Positions 15,469-47,001 of a DNA stretch of 64,000 nt are shown piece by piece (the first letter of the stretch is position 1; each line of letters begins with the position of its first letter). The notes beneath the pieces were generated by a model that made no database searches, had not been told where the DNA came from, and worked only from the letters and a program-made list of their open reading frames with translations. The stretch comes from a virus: the IMG/VR virus record IMGVR_UViG_3300044695_008209, positions 118,778 through 182,777 of that record; one strand, 5' to 3'. The position numbers were made by a program, and so were the translations under genes.

Positions 15469-16256
15469 GCTTCGGCCATCTCCTGCCCGTCGCGCACCGC
15501 CGAGAGGATGTCCGGATCCACTGCGCTCAATCCCGCCTCCTTGAACGCGGCACCCATGGTCGTATCCGCGTGCACCTCCAGCAGCGAGTAGTGCGGGGTG
15601 GGCTCGGCGAGGATCTCCAGCGTCACACGGGACCCGATCCCAGCGCGGCTCCGGAGCTGGGCGTGGAGTTTCGGGACGATCTCACTGAGGGGAGCGTCTC
15701 CCTTCTCGAGGACGGACTTCGGGTCCCCCGGAGTCATCCAGCGCACTGGCACCACCACCGCGGTCTTCCTCCCGTCGTCGTGCTCTTCCACCACCGTCGC
15801 CGCCAGGTACGGCACCAGGTGGAGCATGCGGGTGCGGACGTCCCACTCGAGGCCGATACCGCCGCCCATGACCTGGCCGTCCACGATGACAGGCACGTTC
15901 GGCCCCGCCCAGAACACGTCCTTCGGGGGGACCCAGAGGTGGTACTGCTTCAGCGGAGAGCTGTCGTTGATCGCGGCGCTGAAGACCCGGCCGTCACGAA
16001 CACGCAGGGAGCCCCCGTCGATCGGGAAGTGCCGGAGGGTGTTGTTGAGGGCCGCGCGCGCGGATTCCATGCTGCTGTCGCGCCCGACGATCCCAGGCAT
16101 GGTGGACCACATCCGAGGCACGCCACGGCTGTCGACCCCGCCGAACACCGCGATGGTGGTCCAGTGCGGCGGGATGGAGATGGTTTCGCCATCCTGAGCG
16201 TGGCTGGAGGCGGGAAGAAGGCGGCATTCGAGGCCGAGCGTGAAGACGTGGTTCAT
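15465..16256 (-). CDS. Hypothetical protein
   Basis: RBS aagga; CATAAG motif about 40 nt upstream. Confidence 0.6.
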   Translation of the reverse strand: MNHVFTLGLECRLLPASSHAQDGETISIPPHWTTIAVFGGVDSRGVPRMWSTMPGIVGRDSSMESARAALNNTLRHFPIDGGSLRVRDGRVFSAAINDSSPLKQYHLWVPPKDVFWAGPNVPVIVDGQVMGGGIGLEWDVRTRMLHLVPYLAATVVEEHDDGRKTAVVVPVRWMTPGDPKSVLEKGDAPLSEIVPKLHAQLRSRAGIGSRVTLEILAEPTPHYSLLEVHADTTMGAAFKEAGLSAVDPDILSAVRDGQEMAEA

Positions 16257-18105
16257 GGATGATCCTTGTTGTAGCTGGCGGGAGTTGCCAGTACAGGCTT
16301 ATGGCAAGATCATGAAGCCTTTAGGGTCTGCAGATCCCCTGGACGTCTTCCGCCTGATCAGGCAGGAGTCCTCCGACGGCGTCCTCGAGGACTACCCGAA
16401 CGAGTGGGACTACGAGCCCCCCGTGCCGGACGTCTCCCCGTGGGAGTACACGGACGCGATGAGGGGGGCGAACGACCTCCTCGAGGTGTCCCCCTCCCAG
16501 TTCGTCGAGACCTCGATCCTGATGCCGGACGCGGAGACGAAGACGCTCGTCCCGTTCGACTTCACGCACCGCCCGTACCTGCGCCGCATCTACGACACCC
16601 CGAGCAAGCGCGTCCTCTTGATGTGCGCGCGGCAGGTCGAGAAGTCGACCACCCTCGGGAACCGCATCCTCGCGGTCAGCTGCCTCATCCCGCACTTCCG
16701 CACGCTCTACGTCTCGCCCTCCGCGCAGCAGACGCAGGAGTTCAGCAAGACCCGCATCCGCGAACTCCTCGAGACGTCTCCCGACCTGCGGCGCTGGTTC
16801 CCCGCGCACCTCACGGACAACGTCTTCGAGAAGCGCGCGATCAACCGCAGCACGGTGACCCTGCGGTACGCGTTCTTGAACGCGGACCGGTGCCGTGGTC
16901 TTCGCGCCGACTTGGTGGCGCTGGACGAGATCCAACACATCCACCTCGAGAACATCCCCGTCATCGAGGAGGCGGCGTCCCACTCCCCCTACCGGAACTT
17001 CATCTACTCGGGCACCCCGCTCACGCTCGACAACCCGATGGAGCACTACTGGTCGAACTTCTCCACCCAGAACGAGTGGGCCGTCCCCTGCGAGCGCCAC
17101 GGTGTGCCGAAGGACCCCGGGTCCTGGCACTGGAACATCCTCGGCGAGGACAACATCGGGAAGCTGGGGCTCATCTGCGACAAGTGCGGAGGGCGCATCA
17201 ACGCGGCGCACCCGCAGGCGCAGTGGGTCCGCACCGGCTCTCCCGACCCCACGCTGAGCGTCTTCGAGGGGTTCCGGATCCCGCAGCTCATGGTGCCGTG
17301 GATCGACTGGAAGGATCTGTACACCAAGTACCAGGACTACCCGCGGGCCATGTTCTTCAACGAGTGCCTCGGGCTCTCGTTCGACAGCGGGCAGCGGCCC
17401 CTCTCGGCGGCCGACATCCAGCTGAACTGCGACGACGAGCAGCGGCTCAGCCCGGAGAACGTGAAGCTGTGGAAGGAGAAGCTCGCCGGCGTGCCCCTCT
17501 ACGGCGGCATCGACTGGGGACAGGACAGCTCGAAGTCGTACACGGTGATGAAGGTCGGAGGGTACTACCGCGGGAAGTTCCGCGTCATCTTCGCGCACCG
17601 CTTCGTGGGGGCGGAGTCCGACATCCGCGCGCAGATGGACAAGATCTGCCGCATCATCGACACCTTCCAGCTCGCCAGGGTCGGCGTTGACTACGGCGGC
17701 GGTCTTCACCCCAACGACGAGCTCCTGCGGAAGTACGGATCCCAGCGCATCGTGCGTTTCCAGTACTCGACCCCCAGCGTCTACATGAAGTGGGACGCCC
17801 AGCTGGGCCGTTACATCATCCACCGCTCGGAGGTGATGTCGGCGCTCTTCAACGCCATCAAGCGCGGGAACGTCTACCGCTTCCCCGCGTGGAAGGACTT
17901 CTCGCAGCCGTTCGCCGCCGACATGCTCTCGATCTTCTCCGAGTACAATGAGTTCATGCACATGACCCAGTACAAGAAGTCGCCGAACAACACCGACGAC
18001 TCCTTCCACGCGCTGCTGTTCATGACGTGCGCATCCATGCTGGACACCCCCCGCCCCGACATCTTCGTCCCCAACGCCGCGATCGACCGTCGCCTTGCGG
18101 ACTAA
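16240..18105 (+). CDS. terL: Terminase large subunit, lambda GpA-like (real start probably 16312)
   Basis: CARQVEKST (Walker A), RGLRADLVALDEIQ (Walker B), YSGTP, Zn finger CERH...CDKC, nuclease GGIDWG. Confidence 0.9.
   Translation: MKTWFMDDPCCSWRELPVQAYGKIMKPLGSADPLDVFRLIRQESSDGVLEDYPNEWDYEPPVPDVSPWEYTDAMRGANDLLEVSPSQFVETSILMPDAETKTLVPFDFTHRPYLRRIYDTPSKRVLLMCARQVEKSTTLGNRILAVSCLIPHFRTLYVSPSAQQTQEFSKTRIRELLETSPDLRRWFPAHLTDNVFEKRAINRSTVTLRYAFLNADRCRGLRADLVALDEIQHIHLENIPVIEEAASHSPYRNFIYSGTPLTLDNPMEHYWSNFSTQNEWAVPCERHGVPKDPGSWHWNILGEDNIGKLGLICDKCGGRINAAHPQAQWVRTGSPDPTLSVFEGFRIPQLMVPWIDWKDLYTKYQDYPRAMFFNECLGLSFDSGQRPLSAADIQLNCDDEQRLSPENVKLWKEKLAGVPLYGGIDWGQDSSKSYTVMKVGGYYRGKFRVIFAHRFVGAESDIRAQMDKICRIIDTFQLARVGVDYGGGLHPNDELLRKYGSQRIVRFQYSTPSVYMKWDAQLGRYIIHRSEVMSALFNAIKRGNVYRFPAWKDFSQPFAADMLSIFSEYNEFMHMTQYKKSPNNTDDSFHALLFMTCASMLDTPRPDIFVPNAAIDRRLAD
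16298..16324 (-). promoter_or_regulatory. Putative phage promoter CTAAAG-N15-CATAAG
   Basis: One copy of a motif recurring upstream of - strand genes. Confidence 0.5.
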
Positions 18106-20024: not shown

Positions 20025-20939
20025 ATGACCCACTTCATCGAAGTGACCGAGCACTCCCTGCGGGACTTGTCCCGGCGGGCGACCACGCTCTATCTCAGCC
20101 CGGGCTCTGCTACGCCTTGCTCTCCGACGGAGGCCGTCATCAAGGTCGCGTCCGCCTTCACGGATGCGCCTCTCACGAGCGAGCACGTTCGCCGCATCTG
20201 CGAGATGACCTACCACGACATCTTCGAGCAGTCCTTCCGTGGGAGCGCCGGGCCCGACCGCATGGTCTCGTTCGATCCCCCCGATGCAGAGAAGGTCGCG
20301 TCCGCTATCCGGGCGCGGCGCCTCGACTCGTTCAGCGCGAAGGTGGCGAGTGCCCCCCGCGCAGGAGGCACCACGATGGACAAGAACGCTGATGCTCTGG
20401 CCGGACGCGCGCCGCCGGTACAGAACGCGTTCAGCGCGGCCATGCGTGCTGTCGCCCCCGACCGCTCTGGGATGAAGAAGGAGGCCCGCGCCTCGCTTCA
20501 TCACACGCGTGTCCAGTTGAAGGAGGCGGAGACCGCCCTTCGTGTCGACCTGGCAACCGCTGTCGGCTCGGAGAAGGTGGCCTTCCTGGACCTCCTCAAC
20601 GGCGCAGTACACGCCGTCCACCAGGGCGTGCCGGCGATGGCAGTGGTCACCGCGTGCCTCGAGTTCGCCAAGTCTGCAGGAGCTGAGGACGACCTCGTGC
20701 TCGAGGGTCTCGCCACGGACCTGCTGCGCGGGTTCGCCCGACGCGGCGTCGCCCTCAGCGGTGAGAAGGTCGCGAGCCTGAACGGGCTGTTCGTCAACGA
20801 GCGGCACCCCCTTCGCTCTCAGGTGATCAAGGTGGCGGAGCTTCGCGGCTACCGGATCCACGGAGAGATCGCGCTGCAGGACGTGCGCACCCAGATGCAA
20901 CGTGTCGAGCGGGAGCTGCAGGATGTCCTCTACCAGTAG
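20025..20939 (+). CDS. K-x-A-saturated head protein (core/scaffold-like)
   Basis: 10 of 11 Lys are in K-x-A; first gene of the head operon. Confidence 0.65.
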   Translation: MTHFIEVTEHSLRDLSRRATTLYLSPGSATPCSPTEAVIKVASAFTDAPLTSEHVRRICEMTYHDIFEQSFRGSAGPDRMVSFDPPDAEKVASAIRARRLDSFSAKVASAPRAGGTTMDKNADALAGRAPPVQNAFSAAMRAVAPDRSGMKKEARASLHHTRVQLKEAETALRVDLATAVGSEKVAFLDLLNGAVHAVHQGVPAMAVVTACLEFAKSAGAEDDLVLEGLATDLLRGFARRGVALSGEKVASLNGLFVNERHPLRSQVIKVAELRGYRIHGEIALQDVRTQMQRVERELQDVLYQ

Positions 20940-21207: not shown

Positions 21208-22230
21208 ATGGACACCACACTCGTCGAGATCCTGGCTGCGCACGGGTCGGGCCGTATCAGCGCCGAGGGCGCCGCCCGGAGCGTGAAGCTGGCCAGCATG
21301 CTCGGGATGAAGAAGGAGGCCCTGAATCTCCCGCCGTCGGTGATGGCGGCCCTCGGCAAGCTCAACCCCAGCCAGTCGACGCGCGACGCCATGGTCCACG
21401 GGCTCGCGGCCAGCGGTGCGATCGGTGCTGCTGGGATGGGAGTGCACGCGCTCTCTTCCGGTGCTCGCGCGCTGACCGAGAGGTACTCCAAGAAGAAGGA
21501 CCTCGAGAAGATCCTCCAGACCTTCCCGCGTCTGCGGGAGTACCCGCAGGCCGAGATCGACCTCGCGTACAACTCCATCCGGCACATGAACCCTCACATC
21601 GCGAGCGACCCGCTCGCGGGCGGTTCCCTTCTCGGCCAGGTGCTGCGGCAGCGGGACTCGCTGGACCCCAAGACGCTGCGCATGGAGGTCGACCTCGCCG
21701 GGAACCTGCTGCGTCTCCGTCCGGAAGAGCAGCACATCGGCGAGGAGATCATGCGCGACGCCACGAGCGCCGGCATGGCGATGGGCTTCCAGGAGGCTGC
21801 CAAGGCGCGCGACCGCGCGCAGGCGGAGGCCTTCCAGTTCGGAGAGAACCAGAAGAACCGCGACGCCCAGAGTGCGCTGCAGACCCAGCAGCTGCGTGCT
21901 CAGGGCGGCATCGCCCAGGCCAACCTGAACCTCAAGAAAAAGGAGATGGCCAACCGCGTGAAGGAGATGGCCGCTGCGCGCGCCGCCTCTGAACGGGACT
22001 CGAAGACCGAGCACGGCCGTCGAATCTCCCTCGCCGAGCGGATGCAGACCTTCCAGCGGGAGGAGAACGAGAAGGGCCACAACCGGCAGGACGAGCGCCT
22101 CTTCCCGCAGGCAATCCTGCGCGGCGCCGTACTCAACGAGTACATGGACCCGCTGACAGGCCAGTCGATCCCGCCCTCCATCGGGGACGTTCAGCATCTC
22201 TACCCCAGCCTGCGCCGCTTCATGCCCTGA
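21208..22230 (+). CDS. Head-associated protein with K-x-A sites, a hydrophobic helix and a coiled coil
   Basis: VKLAS, KKEAL; GLAASGAIGAAGMGVHAL. Confidence 0.6.
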   Translation: MDTTLVEILAAHGSGRISAEGAARSVKLASMLGMKKEALNLPPSVMAALGKLNPSQSTRDAMVHGLAASGAIGAAGMGVHALSSGARALTERYSKKKDLEKILQTFPRLREYPQAEIDLAYNSIRHMNPHIASDPLAGGSLLGQVLRQRDSLDPKTLRMEVDLAGNLLRLRPEEQHIGEEIMRDATSAGMAMGFQEAAKARDRAQAEAFQFGENQKNRDAQSALQTQQLRAQGGIAQANLNLKKKEMANRVKEMAAARAASERDSKTEHGRRISLAERMQTFQREENEKGHNRQDERLFPQAILRGAVLNEYMDPLTGQSIPPSIGDVQHLYPSLRRFMP

Positions 22231-24143
22231 TGGAGAAGTACTTCCAACTCCACGGGAAGACGGCCGAGGGCCGTCCTCTGATCCACCTGGTCGAGCCGGG
22301 CACCCGGTACGGCCTGGGTGCGTCTGCGGGGTTAGAGAAGGTCGCGGGCGGAGAGCACCTGCCGGAAGTGCTGGAGCTCATCGAGTCTATCCAGCCGCAG
22401 TCCGACCGGCTCTACCTCGTGAACAGCGCGCTGGGTGCGGGGGAGTACGTCGGGTTCAACCTCCGGGGCGACTGGTTCGGCGAGCGCGGCCTCCTCCACA
22501 CGCCACCCGGCTGGGACCGGATCCCTGTGTGGGACGTGGACGCGCGGCGGCGCGCGGCGAGTTCGACCGAGCGCGCTGGCGACTGGGGGATGCTCGCGTG
22601 GGGCTACCCCACGTTCATGAACGCCCACCGGTTCCGCCACCACGTGAACAAGGACCCCGAGAAGGCGTACGGCTACGTCCTCGGTGCGTTCTGGGACGCA
22701 CGCATGCACCGCGTGGTCCTTGTGTCGGAGCTGGTGCGTGAGATGTGCGCGCGCCTGGGGGCCGTCGACCTCTACGACCGGATCGCCGGCGGGGAGTTCC
22801 CGGACACCTCGATGGGCGCGAAGGTCCCGTACGATCGGTGCTCGATCTGCAACCACTACGCGCGCTCACCGGCCGACTATTGCCTGCACGTGCGCCAAGG
22901 CGCATCCCCTCCCTACGGGATGCGGGCGATCCTCGGCGACGGACGCATGTGCGGGGTCTACAACGACTACCCCCGCTTCTTCGACGACTCGTACGTCTTC
23001 ATCGGCGCGGAGCGATCCGCCAAGGTGATGGCCAACATCACCTCGCAGCTGAAGGGCACCCGCGCGTACACGAACCAGCTGTTCCAGCCGGGGGCGAGTC
23101 TCTCGACTCGTGAGGTGACCGCAGACGCTCCTGCCAGTCCGCTCGAGGAACGGAACGAGCGGCTCGGACTGGCCGTGGCAGGAGTCCTCAACTCCCGCGT
23201 TCGCGGTCCGAACGAGAGCCGTGTCAGCGAGGCCATCTCACAAGCGCTGTCGGCGGTGCCCGTCTCGAAGAATGACGCCGAGGCGAAGGCGATGCAGCAC
23301 GCCGAGGAGCTGCTGCGCCGGCGCGCCGCGGTCTCCGACCACACAGTTTCGGAGGACGAGCTCCGCTTCTGGGAGGGCAAGGCGTCGAGAGACCTGAGCG
23401 ATCGCCACAGCGTCACCACGGCCCAGCGGGACCGTGCAGTCGCCATCCTGCGCTCGCGCATGGACCAGATGGGCTCGACGGAGAAGCTCGGAACGCTCGC
23501 GAAGTGGGCCACCATGACGAAGCGGCTACCGGCACCGGACAGCACGCAGTACGCCCTGCTCCGCGACCACGTCGGACGCCTGACACCGGTTCTTCCGCAG
23601 CGCGTGTACGACGAGTGCAGTTCTTCGGTACCGGGCATGTGGCGAGGGCTGTCCGGACTGTCGGCCCTCGGGATCGTCCTTCGCCCCGAAGAGTTCCAGC
23701 AGTGCGCGCTGCGTGGCATGGGGGAGGACGCCCTGTCCGACCACTGCACGTTGGAGGGACTCCGGTTCCAGCCCACCCCGCGCGACCCGTACCATGAGCC
23801 CCGGTGGATTCCACACATCCCCGCCACCGGTGATCTACAGCGACTCGTACAGCTGCTCGGCTCCGTCCTGCAGGGACGCTCGTTTGCTCCGAGTGCGGTG
23901 CACGTACGGATCCTGACACCACCACCGCTCGTGGGTCCTCGATCCGAGCGCGTTGTGGATGAACCGGTCTTGAATCAGGTATCTCAGATGTACAACGACT
24001 ACCGGATGGGGTTGTTGGCGCGAGATGCCGACTGGAGCTATGTGCCTTTGGGTGCTCGTTCCGGTGCCTTCTCTCTCGACAGTAAGACCGCCGCCGCTGC
24101 CGATGCCGTCTCCGCACTTCTTCTTCATCTTGCACACTGGTAG
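22230..24143 (+). CDS. Prohead (maturation) protease, assemblin/HK97-like fold with Zn-finger insertion and long C-terminal extension
   Basis: N..GDWF, HRFRHHVNKDP (His), DTSMGAKV (Ser), CSIC..YCLH, PRFFDDSYV; upstream of the scaffold and capsid genes. Confidence 0.75.
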   Translation: MEKYFQLHGKTAEGRPLIHLVEPGTRYGLGASAGLEKVAGGEHLPEVLELIESIQPQSDRLYLVNSALGAGEYVGFNLRGDWFGERGLLHTPPGWDRIPVWDVDARRRAASSTERAGDWGMLAWGYPTFMNAHRFRHHVNKDPEKAYGYVLGAFWDARMHRVVLVSELVREMCARLGAVDLYDRIAGGEFPDTSMGAKVPYDRCSICNHYARSPADYCLHVRQGASPPYGMRAILGDGRMCGVYNDYPRFFDDSYVFIGAERSAKVMANITSQLKGTRAYTNQLFQPGASLSTREVTADAPASPLEERNERLGLAVAGVLNSRVRGPNESRVSEAISQALSAVPVSKNDAEAKAMQHAEELLRRRAAVSDHTVSEDELRFWEGKASRDLSDRHSVTTAQRDRAVAILRSRMDQMGSTEKLGTLAKWATMTKRLPAPDSTQYALLRDHVGRLTPVLPQRVYDECSSSVPGMWRGLSGLSALGIVLRPEEFQQCALRGMGEDALSDHCTLEGLRFQPTPRDPYHEPRWIPHIPATGDLQRLVQLLGSVLQGRSFAPSAVHVRILTPPPLVGPRSERVVDEPVLNQVSQMYNDYRMGLLARDADWSYVPLGARSGAFSLDSKTAAAADAVSALLLHLAHW

Positions 24144-24222: not shown

Positions 24223-25371
24223 ATGACCACCCTCGCCGACACCCTGGCCCAGCACAACATCAGCGCCGATGACCTGGAGAAGGCCGCGAGCGTGCGCATC
24301 TTCCAGAAGGTCGCGAGCGCCGAGAACATCGACCTCTCGCAGCTCGCGCCGGAGCAGCTCGAGGAGCTCTACGAGCACTTCGAGGCGAACGTCCTCCCGG
24401 CGATCGTCGGTGGTGGCGAGCCCACCACCGAGGCCAAGATCGCCTCGCTGAGCGAGGACGACCTCATCACCCTCTTCGACAAGCAGGCCAGCGCCGAGGG
24501 CCTCGACCTCTCCGGTGCGACCGAGGAGCAGCTCTCCGACGCGTTCGGCTTCTTCCTCGAGAACATCCTCCCGGTCATGGCCGAGAACGGCTTCGAGCCC
24601 GTCACCGCGGAGAAGAGCGCGGAGGTCGAGGAGGCCCAGGCCAAGCTCGCCGAGGCCGACATCCTCGGCCGTCAGATGGCGCGCGGCTACGCCGACGAGC
24701 TGGCCAAGATCGCCGCGACGGACGACCAGGGCAACTACTTCACGCAGGCGGCGAAGTCCAAGATCGTCGACGACGCGGGCAACGCAACGCACACTGGCCG
24801 CATGGGCAAGGTCAAGGACCTCGGGCTCTCGGCGCTGGGCAAGATGCGGCGCAACCCCAAGACCACCGCTGCTCTCGGAGTGGGAGCGCTCGCGGTAGGC
24901 GGAGGGGCGCTCGCACTCCGGAAGCACATGAAGGCCGAAAAAGAGACCACGGCCGGTGTGCAGCTCAGCGTCGAAGACGTGGAGATCCTCAGCCAGCTCG
25001 CCGACATCGGAGACGTGGCCGGGCTACAGAAGGCCGCGAGCCTCATCAAGAACGCGGCCGCGGGTGGCGAGATGGTGCACGTCCCGGGCAAGGGGTCAGC
25101 CCACACCATCAGCAACAAGCTCCGGCAGGGCGGAGAGGTCGCCCGCAAGGCGGTCACCGGCGGCTACGGACGCGGCGTGCAGGCAGCCACGATCGGCGGC
25201 GGCGCCGCTCTCGCCGCGGGCGGCGTTGGAGCCGCTCTCGCGCACCACATGAAGTCGAAGGCCTCCGAGGGGAAGGAGGCCACGGCCGACGCCGTCATCG
25301 ACGTTCTCGTCGAAGAACGGGCCACCGACCTCGCGGCTGAGTGGCTCGTGGCGAACGGCTACGGATCGTAG
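24223..25371 (+). CDS. Scaffold/cargo polyprotein with an internal repeat, K-x-A sites and two hydrophobic helices
   Basis: EKAAS, QKVAS, AKIAS, DKQAS, YADELAKIAA, QKAAS; duplicated ...K.ASAE..DLS....EQL unit. Confidence 0.65.
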   Translation: MTTLADTLAQHNISADDLEKAASVRIFQKVASAENIDLSQLAPEQLEELYEHFEANVLPAIVGGGEPTTEAKIASLSEDDLITLFDKQASAEGLDLSGATEEQLSDAFGFFLENILPVMAENGFEPVTAEKSAEVEEAQAKLAEADILGRQMARGYADELAKIAATDDQGNYFTQAAKSKIVDDAGNATHTGRMGKVKDLGLSALGKMRRNPKTTAALGVGALAVGGGALALRKHMKAEKETTAGVQLSVEDVEILSQLADIGDVAGLQKAASLIKNAAAGGEMVHVPGKGSAHTISNKLRQGGEVARKAVTGGYGRGVQAATIGGGAALAAGGVGAALAHHMKSKASEGKEATADAVIDVLVEERATDLAAEWLVANGYGS

Positions 25372-26925: not shown

Positions 26926-27158
26926 TGCGCCAGATCCTCGCCAACATCGAGAAGTGTGCGGGTGCGGACGACCCTCGGGCCGCCGCGTTCCGTACACTCT
27001 CTGTGCTCCCCAAGACGGCATCGATCGATGACCGCTCTTCGGAGACGGAAGAGGAAGCCCGAGCACGTCGCGTAGGCGAGTTCCTTCGCCGACGGGCCCC
27101 GAGCGGGCTACTGAACGGTTCAGCATCTCCCACCCCTCCGAAGGACACGACGCCATGA
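26925..27158 (+). CDS. Small hypothetical K-x-A protein
   Basis: Overlaps both neighbours' start/stop codons; EKCAG, PKTAS. Confidence 0.4.
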   Translation: MRQILANIEKCAGADDPRAAAFRTLSVLPKTASIDDRSSETEEEARARRVGEFLRRRAPSGLLNGSASPTPPKDTTP

Positions 27159-27541
27159 GCTCCCACGATATCGACGGTGTTGCTGCCGTTGCGGTCCAGT
27201 CCGCCCGCGCCCTCCGTGAGTTGGCGACCAAGTGCGCCTCTCTGGAGACCGAGAACGTCTCCCTCCGCGAGAAGGTGGCCGGCTACGAGCGCGGGGAGCA
27301 GGTGCGCGTGCTCGCGAAAGAGATGGAGGACCGGGGGCTCTCTCCCGAGCTCAGCATGGACGAGAAGATCGCGTCCATCGCGAAGTACCCGGACCTCGGC
27401 CTGGTGCGCGAATCCATCAAGCTCGCCGGCGGCGGGCGTCTGGACATGGCCCGCGTGGCCGACGAGTCCACGAGCTCCTCGCGGGATGCGGCCTCGGATT
27501 CCTTCACCCAGTTCTGCCTCACCGGGCAGCCTTCTTCCTGA
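27155..27541 (+). CDS. Scaffold-like coiled-coil head protein
   Basis: Coiled coil; 4 of 6 Lys are in K-x-A; directly upstream of the capsid genes. Confidence 0.6.
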   Translation: MSSHDIDGVAAVAVQSARALRELATKCASLETENVSLREKVAGYERGEQVRVLAKEMEDRGLSPELSMDEKIASIAKYPDLGLVRESIKLAGGGRLDMARVADESTSSSRDAASDSFTQFCLTGQPSS

Positions 27542-27603: not shown

Positions 27604-28146
27604 ATGAACATGGCCGGCAAGTACGTCACCATCCTGAACCCTGGCTACTCGCAGCTCATCACGAAGGACCTGCCGTACCTGGCCGGCTCGGGGGAGAGCT
27701 CGTCCATCAATCCCTTCAACCCCTCGGACGACCGTCCGCTGGTGGAGGGTGAGTTCCTCGAGCTGGTCGCGTCCGGCACGGCGAACCGCTACACCCGCGG
27801 CGGGAACAACGTGGTCACCACGCCCGACACGCTGGACGGTGAGGGCACGGTTCCCTCGTTCCTGTACTTCCTCGAGGAAGGCCGGTACGACGCGCAGGTC
27901 GCCCAGATGTGCCACGTGATCCGCGGCCCCCTCGGCTTCGAGTTCCGCACCAAGCTGTGCCGGTCGTCCGGCCTCTCGGTCAACTCCAAGGTCTCGGTGT
28001 GGGACTGGGATGGTGGCGGCGCGAGCCCCGGCGCCTACGGCGTCGTCCGCCGCGTGCTCGGTCTCTTCTCCGCCGGCTGGTGCGTGGGCCGCGTCTCGCG
28101 GATCTACGGCACCGACGACATCTCCGTCATCTACGGGCTGCAGTAG
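27604..28146 (+). CDS. Putative capsid cement/decoration protein
   Basis: 180-aa beta-rich ORF immediately before the major capsid gene. Confidence 0.55.
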   Translation: MNMAGKYVTILNPGYSQLITKDLPYLAGSGESSSINPFNPSDDRPLVEGEFLELVASGTANRYTRGGNNVVTTPDTLDGEGTVPSFLYFLEEGRYDAQVAQMCHVIRGPLGFEFRTKLCRSSGLSVNSKVSVWDWDGGGASPGAYGVVRRVLGLFSAGWCVGRVSRIYGTDDISVIYGLQ

Positions 28147-28222
28147 TCTCCTCAGCTACGCGCTGAGGGGCATGCCTCCTACTCCACCCCCCACCAGACC
28201 ACTACTTCTTCTGAGGATCGCC

Positions 28223-29389
28223 ATGAACAGCAGCATCGACGGCACCAGCGCCCGCGACATGAACGCCGGGTTCGTCGAGCGGCTCGACACCGACGGCACC
28301 ACCAAGACCGCGGCCGAGTCGCTCAACTTCATCCGGGACCGCATCCGCGAGGGCAGCTTCACGGACATGATCGTGGCCAACGAGCGCGTCGTGCGTGGCG
28401 ATCTGCAGCGGTCCACCGAGCACGACACCCTCGTGAAGATCGTGGACATCGAGCCCGGTTCGCGGGCGATGGCGTTCACCTTCCGCGGCCAGCCCGACGC
28501 CCAGTACGTCACCGGCAAGCGCTTCGCGATCGGCTTCTTCACCGTCTCGAGCCTCAAGTTCGAGATCGTGGAGCAGGAGCTGATGGCCTACGAGATGCCG
28601 GTCACGCGCATCATCGAGGAGAACTCCCTCAAGGACATGGTCGAGGTCAAGGACCGCACGTTCCTCGTGCACACCGAGACCGCGGTCGAGGCCATGCAGG
28701 AGGAGGCGAACGGTTCCGTGGTCGGCTTCAACACCACCAACGTGAACTCGGGCGCCTGTCTCGAGGTCTCGAAGGTCAAGGGCAGCCTCGCGCTGCAGCA
28801 GGCCTCGGACACCTTCGTGGTCAAGGCGATCCAGCGCCCCGACATCGTCAAGATCAAGCGCCTCCTCAAGCGCGTGATCACCGACGGTTCCGGGAACGTG
28901 GTCCGCCAGGGCCGCCTGCGCCCCGAGGTCATGCTCGCCTGCGAGTCGGACATCGACGAGTTCGACAGCTGGACGCACGAGGACCTGGGCTCCAAGCTCC
29001 AGTCCGAGACCGCGGTCGACGGCTGGGCCTACAACAAGGCCGTCGGCCTTCGCATCGTGAAGACGATCAAGAACGACATCCTCCGCGAGGGGAACATCTA
29101 CGTCTTCACCAGCGCCCAGTACTTCGGGCGGAACTACACGCTGAACGACGTGAAGTTCTACATCGACAAGATCGCCAACCGGATCTTCTGGCAGGCGTGG
29201 ATGGACATCGGCATGGGCATCGCGAACATCGCCTCGGTGGTGAAGCTCGAGCTCTACTCCGGGTCCGTCACCAGCGGTGACACCGACAGCGGCTACGCCG
29301 CGGGCATCCCGGTCGAGATCGAGGACATGGGCGCGGTGAACAACAAGGTCGCCGAGGGCCTCACCTTCCCGCACATCAACCTCTACTGA
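28223..29389 (+). CDS. Major capsid protein (HK97-fold), with KTAA at residues 28-31
   Basis: Size 388 aa, position, E-loop-like LVKIVDIEPGSRAMAFTFRGQP followed by a long spine helix; strong downstream hairpin. Confidence 0.8.
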   Translation: MNSSIDGTSARDMNAGFVERLDTDGTTKTAAESLNFIRDRIREGSFTDMIVANERVVRGDLQRSTEHDTLVKIVDIEPGSRAMAFTFRGQPDAQYVTGKRFAIGFFTVSSLKFEIVEQELMAYEMPVTRIIEENSLKDMVEVKDRTFLVHTETAVEAMQEEANGSVVGFNTTNVNSGACLEVSKVKGSLALQQASDTFVVKAIQRPDIVKIKRLLKRVITDGSGNVVRQGRLRPEVMLACESDIDEFDSWTHEDLGSKLQSETAVDGWAYNKAVGLRIVKTIKNDILREGNIYVFTSAQYFGRNYTLNDVKFYIDKIANRIFWQAWMDIGMGIANIASVVKLELYSGSVTSGDTDSGYAAGIPVEIEDMGAVNNKVAEGLTFPHINLY

Positions 29390-40237: not shown

Positions 40238-40939
40238 ATGGCGACACTTTCGGAATGGAGCCCGTACGATCAGTACGTGCAGGGAGGAATGGTCGACGGC
40301 CGCTACATGAACGCGGCCTACACGCTCATCGCAGCCGGCCCTCCCCGACTGGCGAACGTAGGCGGACCCGCCTTCCTCGCGGCGGCGTTCGCGGCTGGCA
40401 GCTCGGCAGGTGATCAGATCGCCTACCCGGTCGGCGTGGTGCAGAGCTTCAGCCTCGGCCACTCGATGCAGCTCAACCGCTTCTTCGAGATCGGGTCCGA
40501 GCGCAGCTACTTCGTGCCCGGGCGCGTGATGGGGCAGCTCTCGCTGTCCCGCATCATGTACCACGGTCCGTCGCTGCTACGCGTGCTCTACGCCTACTAC
40601 CAGGACCTCGTCCCGAAGACGGTCGTTCCGGCCCTCTTCCCGAACGTCGGTGCCGCCACCGTGGCCAACCCCCACGACGTCGTCATCCCGCCCGGGTACG
40701 AGAACATCTACCTCAACCTGGCCTCGGACCTCTTCAAGCAGCCCATCGGACTGCTCACGATGTTCAAGGACAGCAACGAGGACACGATGGCCTCTTACTA
40801 CTTCGAGTCCTGCTACGTCCCGCAGCACAGCCTCTCCACCGACGCGATGGGCACGGTCATGCAGGAGCAGGTCGGCATCCAGTTCGAGCGGATGATCCCC
40901 ATCGCCACCACGGTCGTCGGCCTGATCAGCGGCCTGTAG
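40238..40939 (+). CDS. Tail tube protein
   Basis: YPVGVVQSFS...NRFFEIGSERSYFVPGR...LSLSRIMYHGPSLL; follows the sheath. Confidence 0.75.
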   Translation: MATLSEWSPYDQYVQGGMVDGRYMNAAYTLIAAGPPRLANVGGPAFLAAAFAAGSSAGDQIAYPVGVVQSFSLGHSMQLNRFFEIGSERSYFVPGRVMGQLSLSRIMYHGPSLLRVLYAYYQDLVPKTVVPALFPNVGAATVANPHDVVIPPGYENIYLNLASDLFKQPIGLLTMFKDSNEDTMASYYFESCYVPQHSLSTDAMGTVMQEQVGIQFERMIPIATTVVGLISGL

Positions 40940-40948
40940 GAGCCGCTC

Positions 40949-43423
40949 ATGCCGTTCGCCAGTGAGGCCCAGCGCCGCCTGCTCTGGGCCAAACACCCGG
41001 ATATCGCCAGGCGCTGGGCCCACGAGCCCGGCGCGAAGAACCGCGACCTCCCTCCGCACGTCAAGGAGGGCGCACGGCTCTTCTCCGAGCTCGGGCTGAA
41101 GCTCGCGGACATGATGCCAGCACCCCCGCAGTCCTCGCTGCGGCCAGGGGTGGAGTTCCGCCCTCACCAGGAGGACGCCATCCAGAAGGCGATGCGGCAG
41201 AACGGCAACCTGCTGCTCAGCCACCCTGTCGGCTCCGGCAAGACCGTGACGGCCATCGGTGCGTTCGACCGCCTGCGCCAGGCCGGGAAGGCCAACCGCG
41301 CGCTCATCGTCACCCCCGCGTCCCTGCGCAAGAACTTCACCGACGAGGGCGTCCACAAGTTCACCCACGACCACTGCACGGTGTTCGGAAACACACAGGA
41401 AGTGGCCGACGGGCAGGGCGTGAGCATCGACCAGCCGGACCCGAAGTCGCGCTACCACGTGGTCAGCTACGACCTCTTCCGAGAGCGCCCGGAGGCCTAC
41501 ATCCGGGCTGCTGGCGCCGACACCGTCATCTACGACGAGCTCCACAAGATCAAGAACATCGGCATCACGGGCAAGGCGCTGAAGGACGCCCGGAAGTTCC
41601 ACCGCAACTTCATCGGGCTCACTGGCTCCATCGTCAGCAACACCCCCGCAGACCTGGTGCCGCTCATCGACGCCATGACGGACGGGAAGCACCACCTCGG
41701 CACGAAGGAGAACTTCGAGCGCCGGTTCATGACGGACGACGGGAAGCTGCAGAACACGCCCATCGTGCGCATGCTGCTGAACCCCTACATCCACCACGTC
41801 GACGCCGCGACGAGCGCCGGCAACATGCCCGTGAAGGAGATGGAGACCGTCAAGGTCGACATGTCTCCCGAGCAGCAGGAGCTCTACCAGTACGTCGTGG
41901 GCAAGATGGACCCCATCACCGCCCTGAAGTTCCGGTTCGGCACGTCGAAGCTCAAGACCAACGACGTCAACAACATCTTCAGCAAGATGACCCAGGCGCG
42001 TCAGGTCTCGAACGCCATCCACACGGTCAACAAGTCCGTGACGCTCTCGGAGTCCGCCGAGCGTTCGCCTAAGATCAGGCGGATCCTGGATGACGTCGAG
42101 GACCACCTCAAGACCACGCCTGACGGGCAGGTCATCATCTACTCGAACATGATCCAGGGCGGCCTCGACGTCATCGGACAGGGCCTTCGGGACCGCGGCA
42201 TCGACCACGGCATCTTCATGGGCAAGGGTCAGCCCGGCTCCACAGAGAAGAGCCGCACCCAGGCCGTCTCGGACTACCAGGCAGGGCGGAAGAAGGTCAT
42301 CCTCCTCTCCTCCGCAGGCGGCGAGGGGCTGAACCTCGGCAACACCACCTTCGTGGCCAACGTGGACGGGCACTTCAACCCGGAGAAGATCCACCAGGCT
42401 GAGGCCCGCGGTGTTCGTGCAGGTGGCCAGGCGCACCGCCCCGAGGCCGAACGAAAGGTCATCGTCCGGAGGTACGTCACGAGGGTCCCGCTCTCGAAGA
42501 CGCAGGTCCTCAAGGACACGATGAACCTCATCTCCCCCAACCACATGATCAACCGCGTCATGGAGGGGCAGCCTGTCCTCTACAACCCCCTTCGACGCGA
42601 GCGCTCGCCGGATGAGTGGGCGTACGAGGTGGCCGGGCTGAAGGACGAGCGGAACAAGGCACTCCGCGGCAACCTCGACAAGAGCGGGGAGGCCCCGCTG
42701 CCCGACAACATCGAGGACATGCTGGACCTCCTCGAGGAGGGTGTCGTCGACCGCGCTGAGGATCCGGCACTCCCGCTGGTGAAGGAGGCCGCAGCGAAGA
42801 AGGACGTGAAGCAGGCGCGCCTCGCCGCGGCTCGCATCCCGATGCAGCCCCACCGCCTCGTCAAGTCCGACCGCATCGTGATGAACGCGTACATGAAAGA
42901 GTTCGCCCCCTACCTCGAGGAGGCCGTAGACCCGACGCAGGTCGATCTGCCGGCCGACAAGCAGCTCCGCGAGCAGGAGTACATCGACGCGCTTCGGGCC
43001 TACTACAGGGAGGCCGCCAAGAACACCGGCGGGTCCAGCTCGAAGGCGCTGACGGACGCGGAGCGGAAGAAGGAGGTCTGGAAGGACACGGCGCTCGTCG
43101 GCACGGTCGGCGGGATCTACGGGGGACTGCACGGCACGGTCCAGGCAGCAGCAGGTGGGATCCCCCTCAAGCACGTGCCCCTGTTAGGACTGGGCGGTGC
43201 GCTGTTCGTGGGTGGAACCCTGGCTGGCACCACCCTCTGGGACGGCATGCGCAACCCCGCGTTCAACACCCCCGCCGCACGTGCGCGGAAGACCAACAAG
43301 CTGACGGACGCCCAGATGGTCCAGCTCCTCCGCGGCCTCGAGGTGCAGCAGAAGGAGGAGAAGACCCACCGCTTCGCCGTCGGCGCCGCCCCTCGCGCAA
43401 CCACCGCCTCGATCCCCTCGTGA
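40949..43423 (+). CDS. SNF2-family helicase with a cleavable-looking leader and C-terminal hydrophobic helices
   Basis: HPVGSGKT, IYDELH, LTGS, LLSSAGGEGLNL, QAEARGVR; leader ends FSELGLKLA. Confidence 0.85.
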   Translation: MPFASEAQRRLLWAKHPDIARRWAHEPGAKNRDLPPHVKEGARLFSELGLKLADMMPAPPQSSLRPGVEFRPHQEDAIQKAMRQNGNLLLSHPVGSGKTVTAIGAFDRLRQAGKANRALIVTPASLRKNFTDEGVHKFTHDHCTVFGNTQEVADGQGVSIDQPDPKSRYHVVSYDLFRERPEAYIRAAGADTVIYDELHKIKNIGITGKALKDARKFHRNFIGLTGSIVSNTPADLVPLIDAMTDGKHHLGTKENFERRFMTDDGKLQNTPIVRMLLNPYIHHVDAATSAGNMPVKEMETVKVDMSPEQQELYQYVVGKMDPITALKFRFGTSKLKTNDVNNIFSKMTQARQVSNAIHTVNKSVTLSESAERSPKIRRILDDVEDHLKTTPDGQVIIYSNMIQGGLDVIGQGLRDRGIDHGIFMGKGQPGSTEKSRTQAVSDYQAGRKKVILLSSAGGEGLNLGNTTFVANVDGHFNPEKIHQAEARGVRAGGQAHRPEAERKVIVRRYVTRVPLSKTQVLKDTMNLISPNHMINRVMEGQPVLYNPLRRERSPDEWAYEVAGLKDERNKALRGNLDKSGEAPLPDNIEDMLDLLEEGVVDRAEDPALPLVKEAAAKKDVKQARLAAARIPMQPHRLVKSDRIVMNAYMKEFAPYLEEAVDPTQVDLPADKQLREQEYIDALRAYYREAAKNTGGSSSKALTDAERKKEVWKDTALVGTVGGIYGGLHGTVQAAAGGIPLKHVPLLGLGGALFVGGTLAGTTLWDGMRNPAFNTPAARARKTNKLTDAQMVQLLRGLEVQQKEEKTHRFAVGAAPRATTASIPS

Positions 43424-43429
43424 GCTCCG

Positions 43430-44536
43430 ATGATCCAGCAACAGTGGGCCTCCTTTAGCGACGAGATCCTGAAGACCGCGGCGACGCGCCAGGTGAAGGA
43501 GATGCGGAAGCTCTACGAGGGGACCAAGTCCTCCGACCCGCGTGTAGCGGCCGCAAGCGAGGCGAAGTTGAAGGGGCTCGCGCAGCGGCTCTACGGCGCC
43601 GGCGTGCAGAAGGACAGTCCTGGTGGGATCCAGGCCGACCGCAAGTTGCAGATGCTGGGCCGGGGGAACGAGGGCGTGGCGGTGCCGGTGCTCGGACCGC
43701 ACGGGGTGGAGGTACGCAAGCAGTACGACCCCAAGTCCCAGCTCTGGAGTCCGTCGATGCAGAAGGACAAGGCGGAGCTCCTTCGGAACTCGAACCCCAA
43801 GCACGTCGCGCAGCTTTACGGCCACCACTCCTCTCCGGACTTCGACATCCACCGCATGGAGCTCGTGAAGGGGAAGGACCTCAAGCAGGCGATCAAGGAG
43901 CTGCCCGACGGAGGGCGTTTCCCTTCTGCGGAGGGAAATCGGCTCGGGGAGCAGGTGCGCGGTGTCGTACCGCACCTCGACGCTGCGGCACACAAGGCGG
44001 GCCTGTCCGGACACCGCGACGCTGCCTGGCACGAGGGAGGGCAGTTCAAGTACAACCCCGGCAACATCAAGATCCAGCCGGACGGGACGGCGAAGGTCAT
44101 CGACGTGCTGCCCACGCGCCAAGTCCCTGCGAACTACCACACTGCTCCCGGACGCCTGGAGCCGATGGACGCGCACAAGGCGCACTTCCCTGGTGGGATT
44201 CCGGCCCAACACGGGGAGACCCCGCTCCTCGACCTGACCAAGAAGCTGGGTCCCGGCTCCAGGCAGGCACCCAAAGGCATCCCGATGAGTGCGTCTAAGC
44301 TGCCGCCCGGAACGCCCCTCCCGGCGACGGGAGTGCCCATCCGCGGTCCCGCTCCTCCGCGCCCGGGCACCCCGCAGATCAAGTCGTTCATGGGTCGCTG
44401 GGGCCCGGGGCTAAGAAAGGCAGCCCCGTGGGCTGCCGGGGCTGCTGGTGTCGCGGGAGCAGGGCTACTCGCGCATCACTTCCTGAAGCGGAACGTCCCG
44501 GAGGAGCGTGGAGCCGGCGGCCCAGCGCCGGTGTAG
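43430..44536 (+). CDS. Protein kinase-like (Hanks/atypical) protein with an FSDEILKTA leader and a C-terminal hydrophobic helix
   Basis: LGRGNEGVA, VRK, MELVKG, HRD...NPGNIKI, AKVID. Confidence 0.75.
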   Translation: MIQQQWASFSDEILKTAATRQVKEMRKLYEGTKSSDPRVAAASEAKLKGLAQRLYGAGVQKDSPGGIQADRKLQMLGRGNEGVAVPVLGPHGVEVRKQYDPKSQLWSPSMQKDKAELLRNSNPKHVAQLYGHHSSPDFDIHRMELVKGKDLKQAIKELPDGGRFPSAEGNRLGEQVRGVVPHLDAAAHKAGLSGHRDAAWHEGGQFKYNPGNIKIQPDGTAKVIDVLPTRQVPANYHTAPGRLEPMDAHKAHFPGGIPAQHGETPLLDLTKKLGPGSRQAPKGIPMSASKLPPGTPLPATGVPIRGPAPPRPGTPQIKSFMGRWGPGLRKAAPWAAGAAGVAGAGLLAHHFLKRNVPEERGAGGPAPV

Positions 44537-44668
44537 CTCTCGGATGAGGTCCTCCCAGGACATCCGGGTGAACTTCGGGTTCGTGAGCAGGAACTCGACG
44601 ACGGCGTCGGGCACCTGCTCCATGTCCTCCTTCGTGGGATACTGGCCGAGCGGAACGGGTTCCATGAT
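44465..44668 (-). CDS. Small antisense hypothetical protein with its own CATAAG motif
   Basis: RBS ggagg; CATAAG at 44685-44690; overlaps the kinase 3' end by 72 nt. Confidence 0.55.
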   Translation of the reverse strand: MMEPVPLGQYPTKEDMEQVPDAVVEFLLTNPKFTRMSWEDLIRELHRRWAAGSTLLRDVPLQEVMRE

Positions 44669-44727: not shown

Positions 44728-47001
44728 ATGGATGACCTCGCAGACCTCGTCAGCAAGACCGTGCACTGGTCTGCGTTCGGTGACGAGATCCGGAAGCACG
44801 CCGGCACCGTCGAGGTCGCCCACAACTTCCACCCCGTCACAGTGCAGCCCCCGCAGGCGAAGCGCGCGAAGTTCCCGTTCACCGGCTTCATCGACTTCCA
44901 GGGCCTGAAGATCGACGTCGAGAACAAGAAGGGCGAATACCGTCGCGGCAAGGACAGGGACGGCCACGAGTGGAAGTGCCTCATGCACGCCCACTACGGC
45001 GAGATCCGGAACACCGAGGGCACCGACGGGGACAAGCTCGACGTCTACGTCGGCCCGAACCACGACTCCAGCCTCGTGGTGGTCGTACGGCAGCACAAGC
45101 CGGATACCGGCGCCTTCGACGAGGACAAGGTGATGGTCGGCTTCGACTCTGTGGAGGAGGCCGTCGGCGCCTACAAGAAGCAGTACGACAAACCCGGGTT
45201 CTACAAGGACGGAGACTACAAAGCCCTGCCCATCGGAGAGTTCTGGCGCTGGGTCCACGATCGCGACAACCACGGGAAGAAGGTGGCCGGAGTCCTGGAC
45301 GGACTCACGGTGAAGACGGCCGCGGATCTCCCTGACATCGTTCGCCCGGCGATCCGCCCGGAGATCCGGGAGTTCGCCCTGCACCCGCACCTCCAGAAGG
45401 GCCTCGCGGGAGCTGCCGCACTCGGAGGGCTGGCCGCAGGGTACCGTGCCCACCGGAACGCGCGGGCGAAGGAGCTGGAGACGGGGGAGCCCAGCACGGG
45501 CAAGCACGTGCTGGAGGGCGGAGCCGCCGGCGTCCTCGGAGGAGCAGGACTCGGAGCAGCGGCAGCGGTCGGCTCCAAGGACGCGCTCGAGAACGTCAAG
45601 CGGCAGGCCGCGCCCAGCGCCAAGTACGTGGCGCAGATGGCGCAGAAGCTCCGCGCTGACGGCAAGTCGATGCCGGAGATCAAGGCGATCCTCAGGGGAC
45701 GCGGGTTCGCCCAGCACTTCCAGAACGCCCACATCGGCTACCAGGCACACGTCCTCCAGGGGAAGATCCACACCGGAAAGGCCGCACTGGTGGGCGCTGC
45801 CGGTCTCGGCCTGCTGGGCGCAGGGGCCGCCGGCCTCAACGCTCACTTCAACAAGGACGAGAACCGCTCTGACCTCCGGGCCACGCAGCGCCGTCTCCAG
45901 GTTGGGCGCTACGCTCCACCCAAGGAGGCGTCTGCCGGCGCCGGCGCGAACGTGCTCGCGGATCTCGGGGACGCCGCGCGAACCGGCGCGAAGGATCTCA
46001 CCATCGCGGCTCGGAACAAGATGCAGAAGACGTCGCCGCCCCACTACGCGCCCCCGCGTCCGCACGTGCAGGTGGCGCCCTCTCCCTGGTCGAAGGGTGC
46101 CGGGGTGCTGGCCAAGCTCGCTGGCTCCAAGCTCCGCATGGCCACGCAGATCGCGGAGGAGGCACCTGGTCGATGGGCCATGTCCCTGGGGGGCCGCGTC
46201 ATCGGACGCATGTCGACATCAGGGAACCAGATCCGGGGAGTGCGCATCCTCGACCCCAAGCTGCAGGGGTTGGGACTGGGCCGGAAGTTCTACGGAGAAG
46301 TGGCGCGTCGTATGCCCGGACAGACGCTGCACAGTGACATGCAGGTTTCGGACAAGGCGACCCGCCTCTGGGACTCGTTACGCGCCGAGCACGGCTGGAA
46401 GCCGACAATACATCCGTGGACGCACCGCGAAGCGGAAGGAGGGGTGGTCTCAACTCTCACAAAGCAGCCTTGGCACGAGGGACATACTCCGGAGATCGAC
46501 GCTCTCCGTGCTGGCTCCGGATTCGCCCGCCCGCCTGCGTACTCGGCATCGCTACCTGCCGCAAGCAAGGTCGCCTGCGCCTTCTCGCAGGAAAAGCGGG
46601 CCACCGAGCTGCCGGGCGTCGGTGATGAGGGAGAGCGCCCGCACGTGCCTGGGCTGAAGACGCCACGCCTGGCCACGCCGCGCCTGAACCCCGACCAGGG
46701 GAAGCACATCCCGGTCAACCCGTTCCGCGGCAACTGGCGGAAGCTGGGCGGAGCCGAAACTGTCGCTCACGAGGCCGGAGAGGCCGCTCGCAACCTGGTG
46801 GCGGCCATTCCAGAGGACGTGAAGCACGGCCTCCTTGGGGCAGCCCTCGTGGGCGCCGGCGCTCTGGGGCTAAAGGCGACCGCCTCCCAGGCGATCAACC
46901 CCCGCCCTGAAGGTGTCGGCTTAGGCGCTGGAGCGCGAGCCGGCCAGAAGGTTCTGACGCTCGGACTCTCTCGGGCTGGTTCGGGGCCCGTGCAGTATTA
47001 G
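44728..47001 (+). CDS. Polyvalent-type polyprotein: inorganic-pyrophosphatase-like (InPase) domain, hydrophobic helices and a GNAT domain
   Basis: GLKIDVENKKG...YGEIRNTEGTDGDKLDVYVG...FDEDKVMVGF; LQGLGLGRKFY; modules separated by KHA, KTA, KEA, KLA, KVA and KRA. Confidence 0.8.
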   Translation: MDDLADLVSKTVHWSAFGDEIRKHAGTVEVAHNFHPVTVQPPQAKRAKFPFTGFIDFQGLKIDVENKKGEYRRGKDRDGHEWKCLMHAHYGEIRNTEGTDGDKLDVYVGPNHDSSLVVVVRQHKPDTGAFDEDKVMVGFDSVEEAVGAYKKQYDKPGFYKDGDYKALPIGEFWRWVHDRDNHGKKVAGVLDGLTVKTAADLPDIVRPAIRPEIREFALHPHLQKGLAGAAALGGLAAGYRAHRNARAKELETGEPSTGKHVLEGGAAGVLGGAGLGAAAAVGSKDALENVKRQAAPSAKYVAQMAQKLRADGKSMPEIKAILRGRGFAQHFQNAHIGYQAHVLQGKIHTGKAALVGAAGLGLLGAGAAGLNAHFNKDENRSDLRATQRRLQVGRYAPPKEASAGAGANVLADLGDAARTGAKDLTIAARNKMQKTSPPHYAPPRPHVQVAPSPWSKGAGVLAKLAGSKLRMATQIAEEAPGRWAMSLGGRVIGRMSTSGNQIRGVRILDPKLQGLGLGRKFYGEVARRMPGQTLHSDMQVSDKATRLWDSLRAEHGWKPTIHPWTHREAEGGVVSTLTKQPWHEGHTPEIDALRAGSGFARPPAYSASLPAASKVACAFSQEKRATELPGVGDEGERPHVPGLKTPRLATPRLNPDQGKHIPVNPFRGNWRKLGGAETVAHEAGEAARNLVAAIPEDVKHGLLGAALVGAGALGLKATASQAINPRPEGVGLGAGARAGQKVLTLGLSRAGSGPVQY

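Follow-up and report, generated by a model that had tools for sequence, protein, structure and literature searches.

A predicted C-lobe-less protein kinase with a candidate packaging leader and a hydrophobic tail in the structural gene set of an IMG/VR virus

What role might a truncated protein kinase play when its gene stands among the structural genes of a virus? The question is raised by the open reading frame (ORF) at 43430-44536, on the plus strand of the window, a term used here for the whole stretch of 64,000 nucleotides (nt) that was analysed and that makes up the final 64 kb of one IMG/VR virus record (IMGVR_UViG_3300044695_008209; 182,777 bp, rated 99% complete). The 368-residue product displays a modular build in which a leader and two helices precede the kinase core, and a GPGSRQ motif, a Pro-rich linker and a Gly/Ala-rich tail follow it. 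The N-lobe and the catalytic core keep all the residues of ATP binding and phosphotransfer, and there are no helices F to I. The reading favoured here, with a probability of roughly 50%, is that of a predicted catalytically competent kinase without a C-lobe, belonging to the phage cargo (polyvalent-protein) class, which would be packaged in the virion, injected and held at the membrane.

The ORF is a real gene, with coding-type composition (GC content at third codon positions, GC3, of 0.83) and homologues. An orthologue of 80% identity is found, in the same gene order, on the metagenome contig L002, and 35 relatives of the kinase are present among 1.8 billion cluster representatives; the family profile and alignment comprise 33 relatives, the canonical kinases having been taken out. 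No match to the kinase protein (tblastn) or to 10 kb of DNA (megablast) was found among 50,697 phage records, and a profile from a 7-sequence alignment revealed no related loci in viral contigs or genome contigs. The nearest Atlas clusters of the kinase are unnamed viral clusters, the nearest named ones including the APH, ABC1 and RIO families and an OspG cluster.

Every motif listed in a first, sequence-only reading of this DNA was recovered at its position. The Gly loop LGRGNEGVA occupies residues 76-84 (nt 43655-43681) and reads G77-R-G79-N-E-G82, the beta-3 Lys K97 closes the VRK motif at residues 95-97 (Gly loop and Lys together at 43655-43720), the hinge MELVKG lies at residues 143-148 and HRD at residues 195-197 (nt 44012-44020). 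These are followed by the insert AAWHEGGQFKY (residues 198-208), NPGN (209-212), AKVID (221-225) and the tail sequence AAGAAGVAGAGLLAHHFLKR (335-354). In the 33 relatives E81, K97, D197, N212 and D225 are invariant and G77, G79, G82, K114 and E144 nearly so. Helix C, a helix in the model, spans residues 108-119 (43751-43786), and its conserved K114 falls at or next to the canonical position of the helix-C Glu, HMMER aligning the Lys of the family to the helix-C Glu of PknA. K114 is kept in at least 90% of the family members and is flanked here by D113 and E116, neither of which is conserved. The catalytic loop runs from H195-R-D197 to N212 (44012-44065) and carries the 11-residue insert 198-208. 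The spacing from Asp to Asn is 15 residues here. Of the relatives, 12 have a spacing of 5 and 9 have one of 7, the others ranging over 13-28; thus, the expansion of about 10 residues claimed by the sequence-only reading is present (15 versus 5) and, on the sequence evidence, real but clade-specific. Where the spacing is canonical, the loop of the relatives is D-[LV]-R-P-x-N and resembles the D-L-K-P-x-N of Ser/Thr kinases. The equivalent of the DFG motif is A-K-V-I-D225 (44090-44104), and the spacing of 13 residues from Asn to Asp is that of canonical kinases.

The fold of the core is that of a protein kinase, as had been proposed. The AlphaFold model displays a predicted local distance difference test score (pLDDT) above 90 over residues 20-270, and Foldseek retrieves at least 500 matches in PDB (E about 1e-7), all those listed being protein kinases, as are the matches in BFVD. 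An independent search with VIA-align gives Z scores that reach 12.2 (ULK4), with PknE at 11.6 and Rio2 at 10.5 (Rio1 and Rio2 together 9.9-10.5), and the minimal kinases NleH1 and OspG both score 10.0, over 135 of 160 and 146 of 169 residues, respectively; all of these matches fall inside model residues 61-260. The family profile, built without canonical kinases, matches PknA (1.1e-10) and StkP (3e-9) in PDB; a first PDB profile search, contaminated by two canonical kinases, was discounted and redone without them. The family alignment is decisive for kinase identity where searches of Pfam and PHROGs with the single sequence fail, the sole PHROGs match of the latter being a weak one (E 0.003) to phrog_2361, 'serine-threonine kinase'. 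Sequence and model together place the protein in the Hanks-type superfamily by its Gly loop, beta-3 Lys, catalytic Asp and Asn, DFG Asp and fold match.

The fold matches end near model residue 250-260 and, in the targets, shortly past the DFG motif, so that the protein has neither an activation segment nor helices F to I. Neither the model nor the fold alignments contain a complete C-lobe with activation segment, APE motif and helices F to I. The earlier proposal that a truncated C-lobe is replaced by a Pro-rich linker is thus right as to the truncation and wrong as to a direct replacement, since an ordered subdomain of 45 residues and the LGPGSRQ motif intervene. The post-DFG subdomain (residues 226-272) and L-G-P-G-S-R-Q (273-279) occupy 44105-44266, as delimited by pLDDT and conservation; residues 226-270, after D225, are ordered with pLDDT above 94, and disorder sets in from about residue 272. 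The Pro-rich linker of residues 280-330 (44267-44419) is disordered, with pLDDT of 36-56. G-P-G-S-R-Q is conserved in 16 of the 33 relatives and may serve for autophosphorylation, as a joint or for recognition. The longer form L-G-P-G-S-[RK]-Q, at 44246-44266 of the window, is also seen on the contigs L001, L005 and L006 and near 11882 of L002, where a similar GPGS[RK]Q motif follows the unrelated, non-kinase enzyme body of a 742-residue protein.

The closest sequence relatives of the core are the Hanks-type kinases PknA, PknB and StkP (profile E 1e-10), with which it has in common the G-x-G-x-x-G loop, the beta-3 Lys, the D...N catalytic loop, the DFG Asp and the 13-residue spacing from Asn to Asp. 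In contrast to them, it is devoid of the activation segment, the APE motif and helices F to I, carries a Lys aligned to the helix-C Glu and has a catalytic loop 10 residues longer. OspG and NleH, the effectors of type III secretion, are similarly minimal kinases of about 160-170 residues, with a structural match of Z 10.0, and are injected into the target cell; they differ in having no detectable sequence-family match, another delivery machine and neither leader nor hydrophobic tail. Phage T7 gp0.7 is likewise a phage kinase whose presumed targets are host proteins at the onset of infection, although it is an early gene product and not a component of the virion.

A closer parallel is found in the polyvalent proteins of phages and plasmids. 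Among these, Iyer et al. 2017 (PMC5512222) recognised a monophyletic kinase group that has lost the entire C-terminal subdomain and kept the active site, with a Glu ahead of strand 2 and an insertion in the catalytic region, and predicted that its members modify host proteins. The novelty implied by the sequence-only reading is reduced accordingly, as truncated kinases of this kind in phage polyvalent proteins had been predicted in 2017 (PMC5512222). Similarly to Kinase-PolyVal (PF18762), the kinase of the window lacks the whole C-terminal subdomain with the active site intact and has the extra Glu before strand 2 (E81, invariant in G-x-G-x-E-G). The description of that family includes an insert between the catalytic His and Asp, in a wording that suits more than one Asp; the insert of the window kinase, at 198-208, comes after the HRD Asp and falls between the HRD His and the DFG Asp, not between H195 and D197. 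Its relatives P0030 and P0004 are fused to effector domains, it lies beside InPase and SNF2 modules as do the kinases of that family, and both are predicted to be delivered by the virion. In contrast, the Gln in the last N-lobe strand of Kinase-PolyVal is absent here, where the strand reads D-I-H-R-M-E-L against a family consensus of H-x-x-E-Y-V, and the kinase is a stand-alone gene. PF18762 has no match on the protein (E up to 1) or in the whole 182.8-kb genome (E up to 10), nor is it among the families matched by the 35 sequences of alignment A1 at E 0.01. The leader with its two helices, the GPGSRQ motif and the hydrophobic C-terminal tail are not mentioned in PMC5512222 (in which 'transmembrane' occurs 0 times), and the host lineage is of high GC, the examples of that paper coming from Verrucomicrobia and Bacteroidetes. 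The protein agrees with the description of 2017 on most points, and among the polyvalent-type truncated phage kinases it represents a variant not catalogued before.

Some of the indirect indications of packaging come from the N-terminus. The leader, W6-x-x-F9-x-D-E-I-x-K15-x-A17, comprises residues 1-17 (43430-43480) and has pLDDT of 62-65 against 96 in the residues that follow. It is succeeded by two conserved helices within residues 18-56 (43481-43597, core A-T-R-Q-V-K-E-M-R-K-L), at 20-32 and 37-56, with pLDDT of about 96; the close clade shows no variation at R20, Q21, V22, E24 and R26, and K15 is nearly invariant in the kinase family. The leader, W-A-S-F-S-D-E-I-L-K-T-A, is near-identical to W-S-A-F-G-D-E-I-R-K-H-A at residues 14-25 of the InPase-domain protein encoded next on this strand (44728-47001). 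The strict pattern occurs 3 times in the proteome and 0.2 times in shuffles. In a six-frame search with a hidden Markov model built from the leaders of the family, of the InPase protein of the window and of the gene downstream of the kinase on L002, the next-best matches fall in the head module beside the protease, one being N-terminal in a small ORF at 25392 and the other internal, at 24688. That downstream gene (L002:11297-13522) keeps the leader and two linker motifs around a different enzyme body, being 27% identical overall to its counterpart at 44728-47001 and without an InPase domain. The leader, kept despite the changed payload, is therefore a module independent of payload, and the difference between the two genes looks like a payload swap inside a constant delivery frame.

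The K-x-A with which the leader ends recurs in head proteins. It follows 10 of the 11 Lys of the ORF at 20025-20939 (p 5e-8) and is enriched in four further plus-strand ORFs, three of them in the head module of the window: 12 of 22 Lys at 10199-11719, 10 of 24 at 24223-25371, 4 of 6 at 27155-27541 and 9 of 14 in an ORF lying 11,858-10,668 nt before the window start. The over-represented sites are mostly followed by S, G or A; the genome-wide K-x-A fraction is 0.12, equal to the frequency of alanine. K-x-A is a candidate cleavage code of the prohead protease, for which the protease-like gene at 22230-24143 on the plus strand (PHROG 18299, 4e-5) is available. In the likely capsid protein (28010-29389) the tetrapeptide K-T-A-A, identical to K15-T-A-A18 of the kinase, is found at residues 28-31 from the probable start, and this may be a capsid protein with a removable N-terminal segment. 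The listed start of its ORF looks too far upstream, the first ~71 residues being of low complexity; from an internal Met, about 27 residues precede K-T-A-A. As a tag common to unrelated proteins that ends in a K-x-A enriched in head proteins, the kinase leader fits a capsid-targeting propeptide that would be removed by the prohead protease. The capsid-targeting sequences of phage T4 are a similar short N-terminal tag on unrelated cargo, ending at the motif of the head protease; T4 differs in cutting after L/I-x-E, the putative cut here following the K-x-A of W-x-x-F-x-D-E-I-x-K-x-A. Phage P1 offers a likeness in its Dar antirestriction cargo, which contains a helicase and is packaged in heads, and the neighbours of the kinase match a DarB-like PHROG.

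At the other end, the Gly/Ala-rich hydrophobic tail of residues 331-348, an uncharged stretch of 18 residues followed by H-H-F-L-K-R (both together at 44420-44491), bears out only in part the 'membrane-like tail' that had been proposed: the hydrophobic tail is present and its hydrophobicity is weak, with Kyte-Doolittle values of 1.16 in the best 19-residue window and 1.33 over the 18-residue stretch. About 13 of the 33 relatives have the tail module. A screen found it in seven other proteins of the same phage. Gly/Ala-rich segments occur once in the kinase, four times in the InPase protein and twice in the scaffold-like protein 24223-25371, and also in a ferritin/Dps-like protein (8469-10202), in the ORF 21208-22230 and in two proteins further upstream, as a rule with His or an aromatic residue next and basic residues after it; similar segments of the SNF2 protein, seen by eye, were missed by the screen. 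A C-terminal membrane anchor is a reasonable reading of this segment. A capsid-internal assembly module is an equally live alternative, in which the tail would hold the cargo in the lumen of the capsid or tail, for example as a glycine zipper with scaffold-like proteins, so that the kinase would be packaged and not tethered. This account, possible if somewhat doubtful as a whole, draws on the double occurrence of the module in the scaffold-like protein and its presence in the ferritin/Dps-like one, on the marginal hydrophobicity and on a gene position just after the tube gene. It is countered by the relatives, whose segment is more hydrophobic (1.3-1.8, up to 1.77) and is always followed, in the manner of tail anchors, by aromatic or His and basic residues, and by the known ejection proteins of other phages, which carry membrane-active segments.

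Virion delivery and membrane tethering are plausible. The claim of delivery, made already in the sequence-only reading, is supported indirectly by a leader that has its K-x-A in common with head proteins, by a tail that recurs in a scaffold-like protein and by the polyvalent relatives, and has the context of P0004 against it. The tethering and the action at the moment of injection, likewise proposed at first sight, are inferences. Several observations weigh against the favoured reading. The relative P0004 lies among genes for thymidylate synthase, dNMP kinase and SSB and not among structural genes. With 3 sites over its full length, the kinase shows no enrichment in K-x-A, and its K15-x-A17-A18, conserved family-wide and abutting a highly ordered helix, could be structural and not a cut site. 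The tail, at 1.16-1.33, lies below the usual Kyte-Doolittle threshold for transmembrane segments. The family does not keep the canonical Glu of helix C, and Pfam assigns the single kinase sequence to no family at E up to 1, the gathering score of PF00069 (Pkinase) not being reached.

The context of P0004 and the conserved K-x-A-A junction, modelled with high confidence together with the helix that follows, would also suit a kinase that is made late and left unpackaged, its N-terminal motif being part of the fold and its tail anchoring it to the membrane of the producing cell, where it would act, for example, on host or phage proteins in assembly, lysis timing or superinfection exclusion. The hydrophobic-then-basic layout of the C-terminus, which resembles that of bacterial C-tail-anchored proteins, points the same way. 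Such a role is unlikely, as the leader heads non-homologous proteins and survives the payload swap of L002, residues 1-19 have low pLDDT unlike the core, and the tail module is common to a scaffold-like head protein. That the product is not a protein kinase in function, and is instead a small-molecule or lipid kinase or a Rio-like ATPase switch at the membrane, is quite improbable, because the missing substrate-binding C-lobe, the Z scores of Rio1 and Rio2 (9.9-10.5), the APH, ABC1 and RIO families among the nearest named Atlas clusters and the weak matches of 2 of the 35 sequences of alignment A1 to APH, Kdo and RIO models are set against best sequence matches that are Hanks-type Ser/Thr kinases, an ancestral catalytic loop (D-[LV]-R-P-x-N) of Ser/Thr type and the precedent of OspG and NleH, which show that C-lobe-poor kinases can phosphorylate proteins.

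In the favoured reading, of a packaged, injected and membrane-held kinase, the protein would be made together with the structural proteins, and its 17-residue leader would direct it into the prohead, where the prohead protease would cut after K15-T-A17. Ejected with the DNA, the kinase would phosphorylate host factors of defence, transcription or translation before phage genes are expressed, and, with the flexible Pro-rich linker as a tether, its hydrophobic C-terminal tail would keep it close to the site of entry on the cytoplasmic membrane.

The kinase does not stand alone in this part of the genome. A plus-strand protein of 1508 residues is taken, from its C-terminal sequence, to be the tail sheath; this candidate is without a family match, and against phage records it finds weak matches only, to the 'structural protein' of Salmonella phage Arash and to three Vibrio phages. 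The tube candidate of 233 residues (40238-40939, plus strand) is assigned by its position. After the sheath and tube genes lie three enzyme genes, all on the plus strand, encoding the SNF2 helicase (40949-43423; Pfam SNF2-rel_dom 5e-17, Helicase_C 2e-11), the kinase and the InPase-domain protein (44728-47001; PF18823 at 3e-39). The SNF2 protein, encoded by a gene 82% identical between the window and L002, has a leader-like N-terminus and Gly-rich hydrophobic segments at its C-terminus. Both neighbours match PHROGs named DarB-like antirestriction (PHROG 10089), minor head protein and virion structural protein. Tape-measure or chaperone functions were also considered for the trio that follows the tube gene, and this was rejected, as a better tape-measure candidate, a 1100-residue protein with a Gly/Ala-rich segment, lies ~61-64 kb upstream of the window start.

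Fused counterparts of this arrangement are seen in the relatives. P0030 (1682 residues; L008:631-5679) joins a LigD_N phosphoesterase, a ligase OB domain, SNF2, this kinase and a Gly/Ala-rich tail in one chain, SNF2 preceding the kinase in the same order as in the window, and P0004 (756 residues) is a kinase with extra C-terminal domains. Given these two proteins and the PHROGs of the neighbours, the three window genes resemble the parts of one polyvalent protein, each now with a tag of its own, and in the favoured reading the kinase is a stand-alone member of such a dismembered SNF2, kinase and InPase set after the sheath and tube genes. Just upstream of P0004, in the same neighbourhood of nucleotide-metabolism genes, L003:8004-10004 encodes a protein of 666 residues with an H-E-A-G-H zincin-like motif and several Gly/Ala-rich hydrophobic segments. 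More speculatively, and with low confidence, the locus could exemplify a general cassette of leader, exchangeable enzyme, GPGS[RK]Q, Pro-rich tether and Gly/Ala-rich anchor, by which this phage lineage would load interchangeable enzymes into the head and plant them on the host membrane at injection. The payloads of such a cassette would include the kinase, the SNF2 helicase, the InPase and the ferritin/Dps-like protein, and the early-promoter gene that overlaps the kinase might, with the same reserve, be a post-entry switch.

A literature search found no experimental demonstration of a tailed phage that packages and injects a kinase. The locus provides a compact test case of 368 residues with separable parts, namely a leader whose candidate cleavage site agrees with the K-x-A code seen across the proteome, a catalytic core of minimal size and a hydrophobic tail that can be detached. 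It also indicates that polyvalent architecture can be split into separately tagged genes, with payloads swapped between close relatives. The favoured reading, if true, would reveal a route by which phages bring host-modifying enzymes into the cell before their own genes are expressed, and would yield a transferable tag with which proteins could be packaged into phage heads.

The transcriptional setting of the kinase is consistent with production alongside the structural proteins. In the whole genome the box GNCATAAG is found 32 times on the minus strand and 0 times on the plus strand, ~10 being expected on both strands, and its usual place is 17-60 nt ahead of a start codon on the minus strand that is preceded by a G-A-G-G-T-G-A ribosome-binding site; the box probably serves a single temporal class of genes as promoter element. 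Its sites in the window are at 16305, 18697, 19232 and 44692. The gaps to the neighbouring genes on the structural strand are 7-10 nt. The kinase starts 6 nt past the SNF2 gene and has no Shine-Dalgarno sequence, which suggests that its translation is coupled to that of SNF2. The 'late-operon' label given to the gene at first sight is therefore supported as far as membership of the structural (late) transcription class goes, by strand, short gene gaps and a plus strand without GNCATAAG, the timing itself not being proven.

The end of the kinase gene is overlapped by a convergent gene of 66 residues on the minus strand (44465-44665; GC3 0.88, 80% identity to its counterpart on L002), which covers the last 24 kinase codons (72 nt). 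It is preceded by a G-T-C-A-T-A-A-G box at 44692-44685 and a ribosome-binding site before the ATG, and its terminator-like hairpin with TTAGC, at 44445-44420, lies inside the codons of the kinase Gly/Ala tail. The product has no Pfam match. A prediction of its complex with kinase residues 18-285 scored 0.08 against a mark of 0.32, the partner being poorly folded, and speaks neither for nor against an interaction. On L006, a distant relative, a small minus-strand gene also lies directly after the kinase; a conserved small partner gene is nevertheless not proposed, the window and L006 products having no detectable homology (BLASTP E 1.4).

The GC content is ~67%. The large terminase is encoded at 16240-18105 (plus strand; PHROG 675, 1e-52), the scaffold-like protein 24223-25371 belongs to the head module, and scaffold-like and repeat proteins are also among the plus-strand genes. 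The 577-residue protein at 8469-10202 contains K-x-A sites and a Gly/Ala-rich hydrophobic segment followed by R-H-L-L-K. Its C-terminal domain is ferritin/Dps-like (PF00210 at 1e-8; PHROG 3636, 'DNA binding protein'), and it may be a DNA-binding cargo of the head interior.

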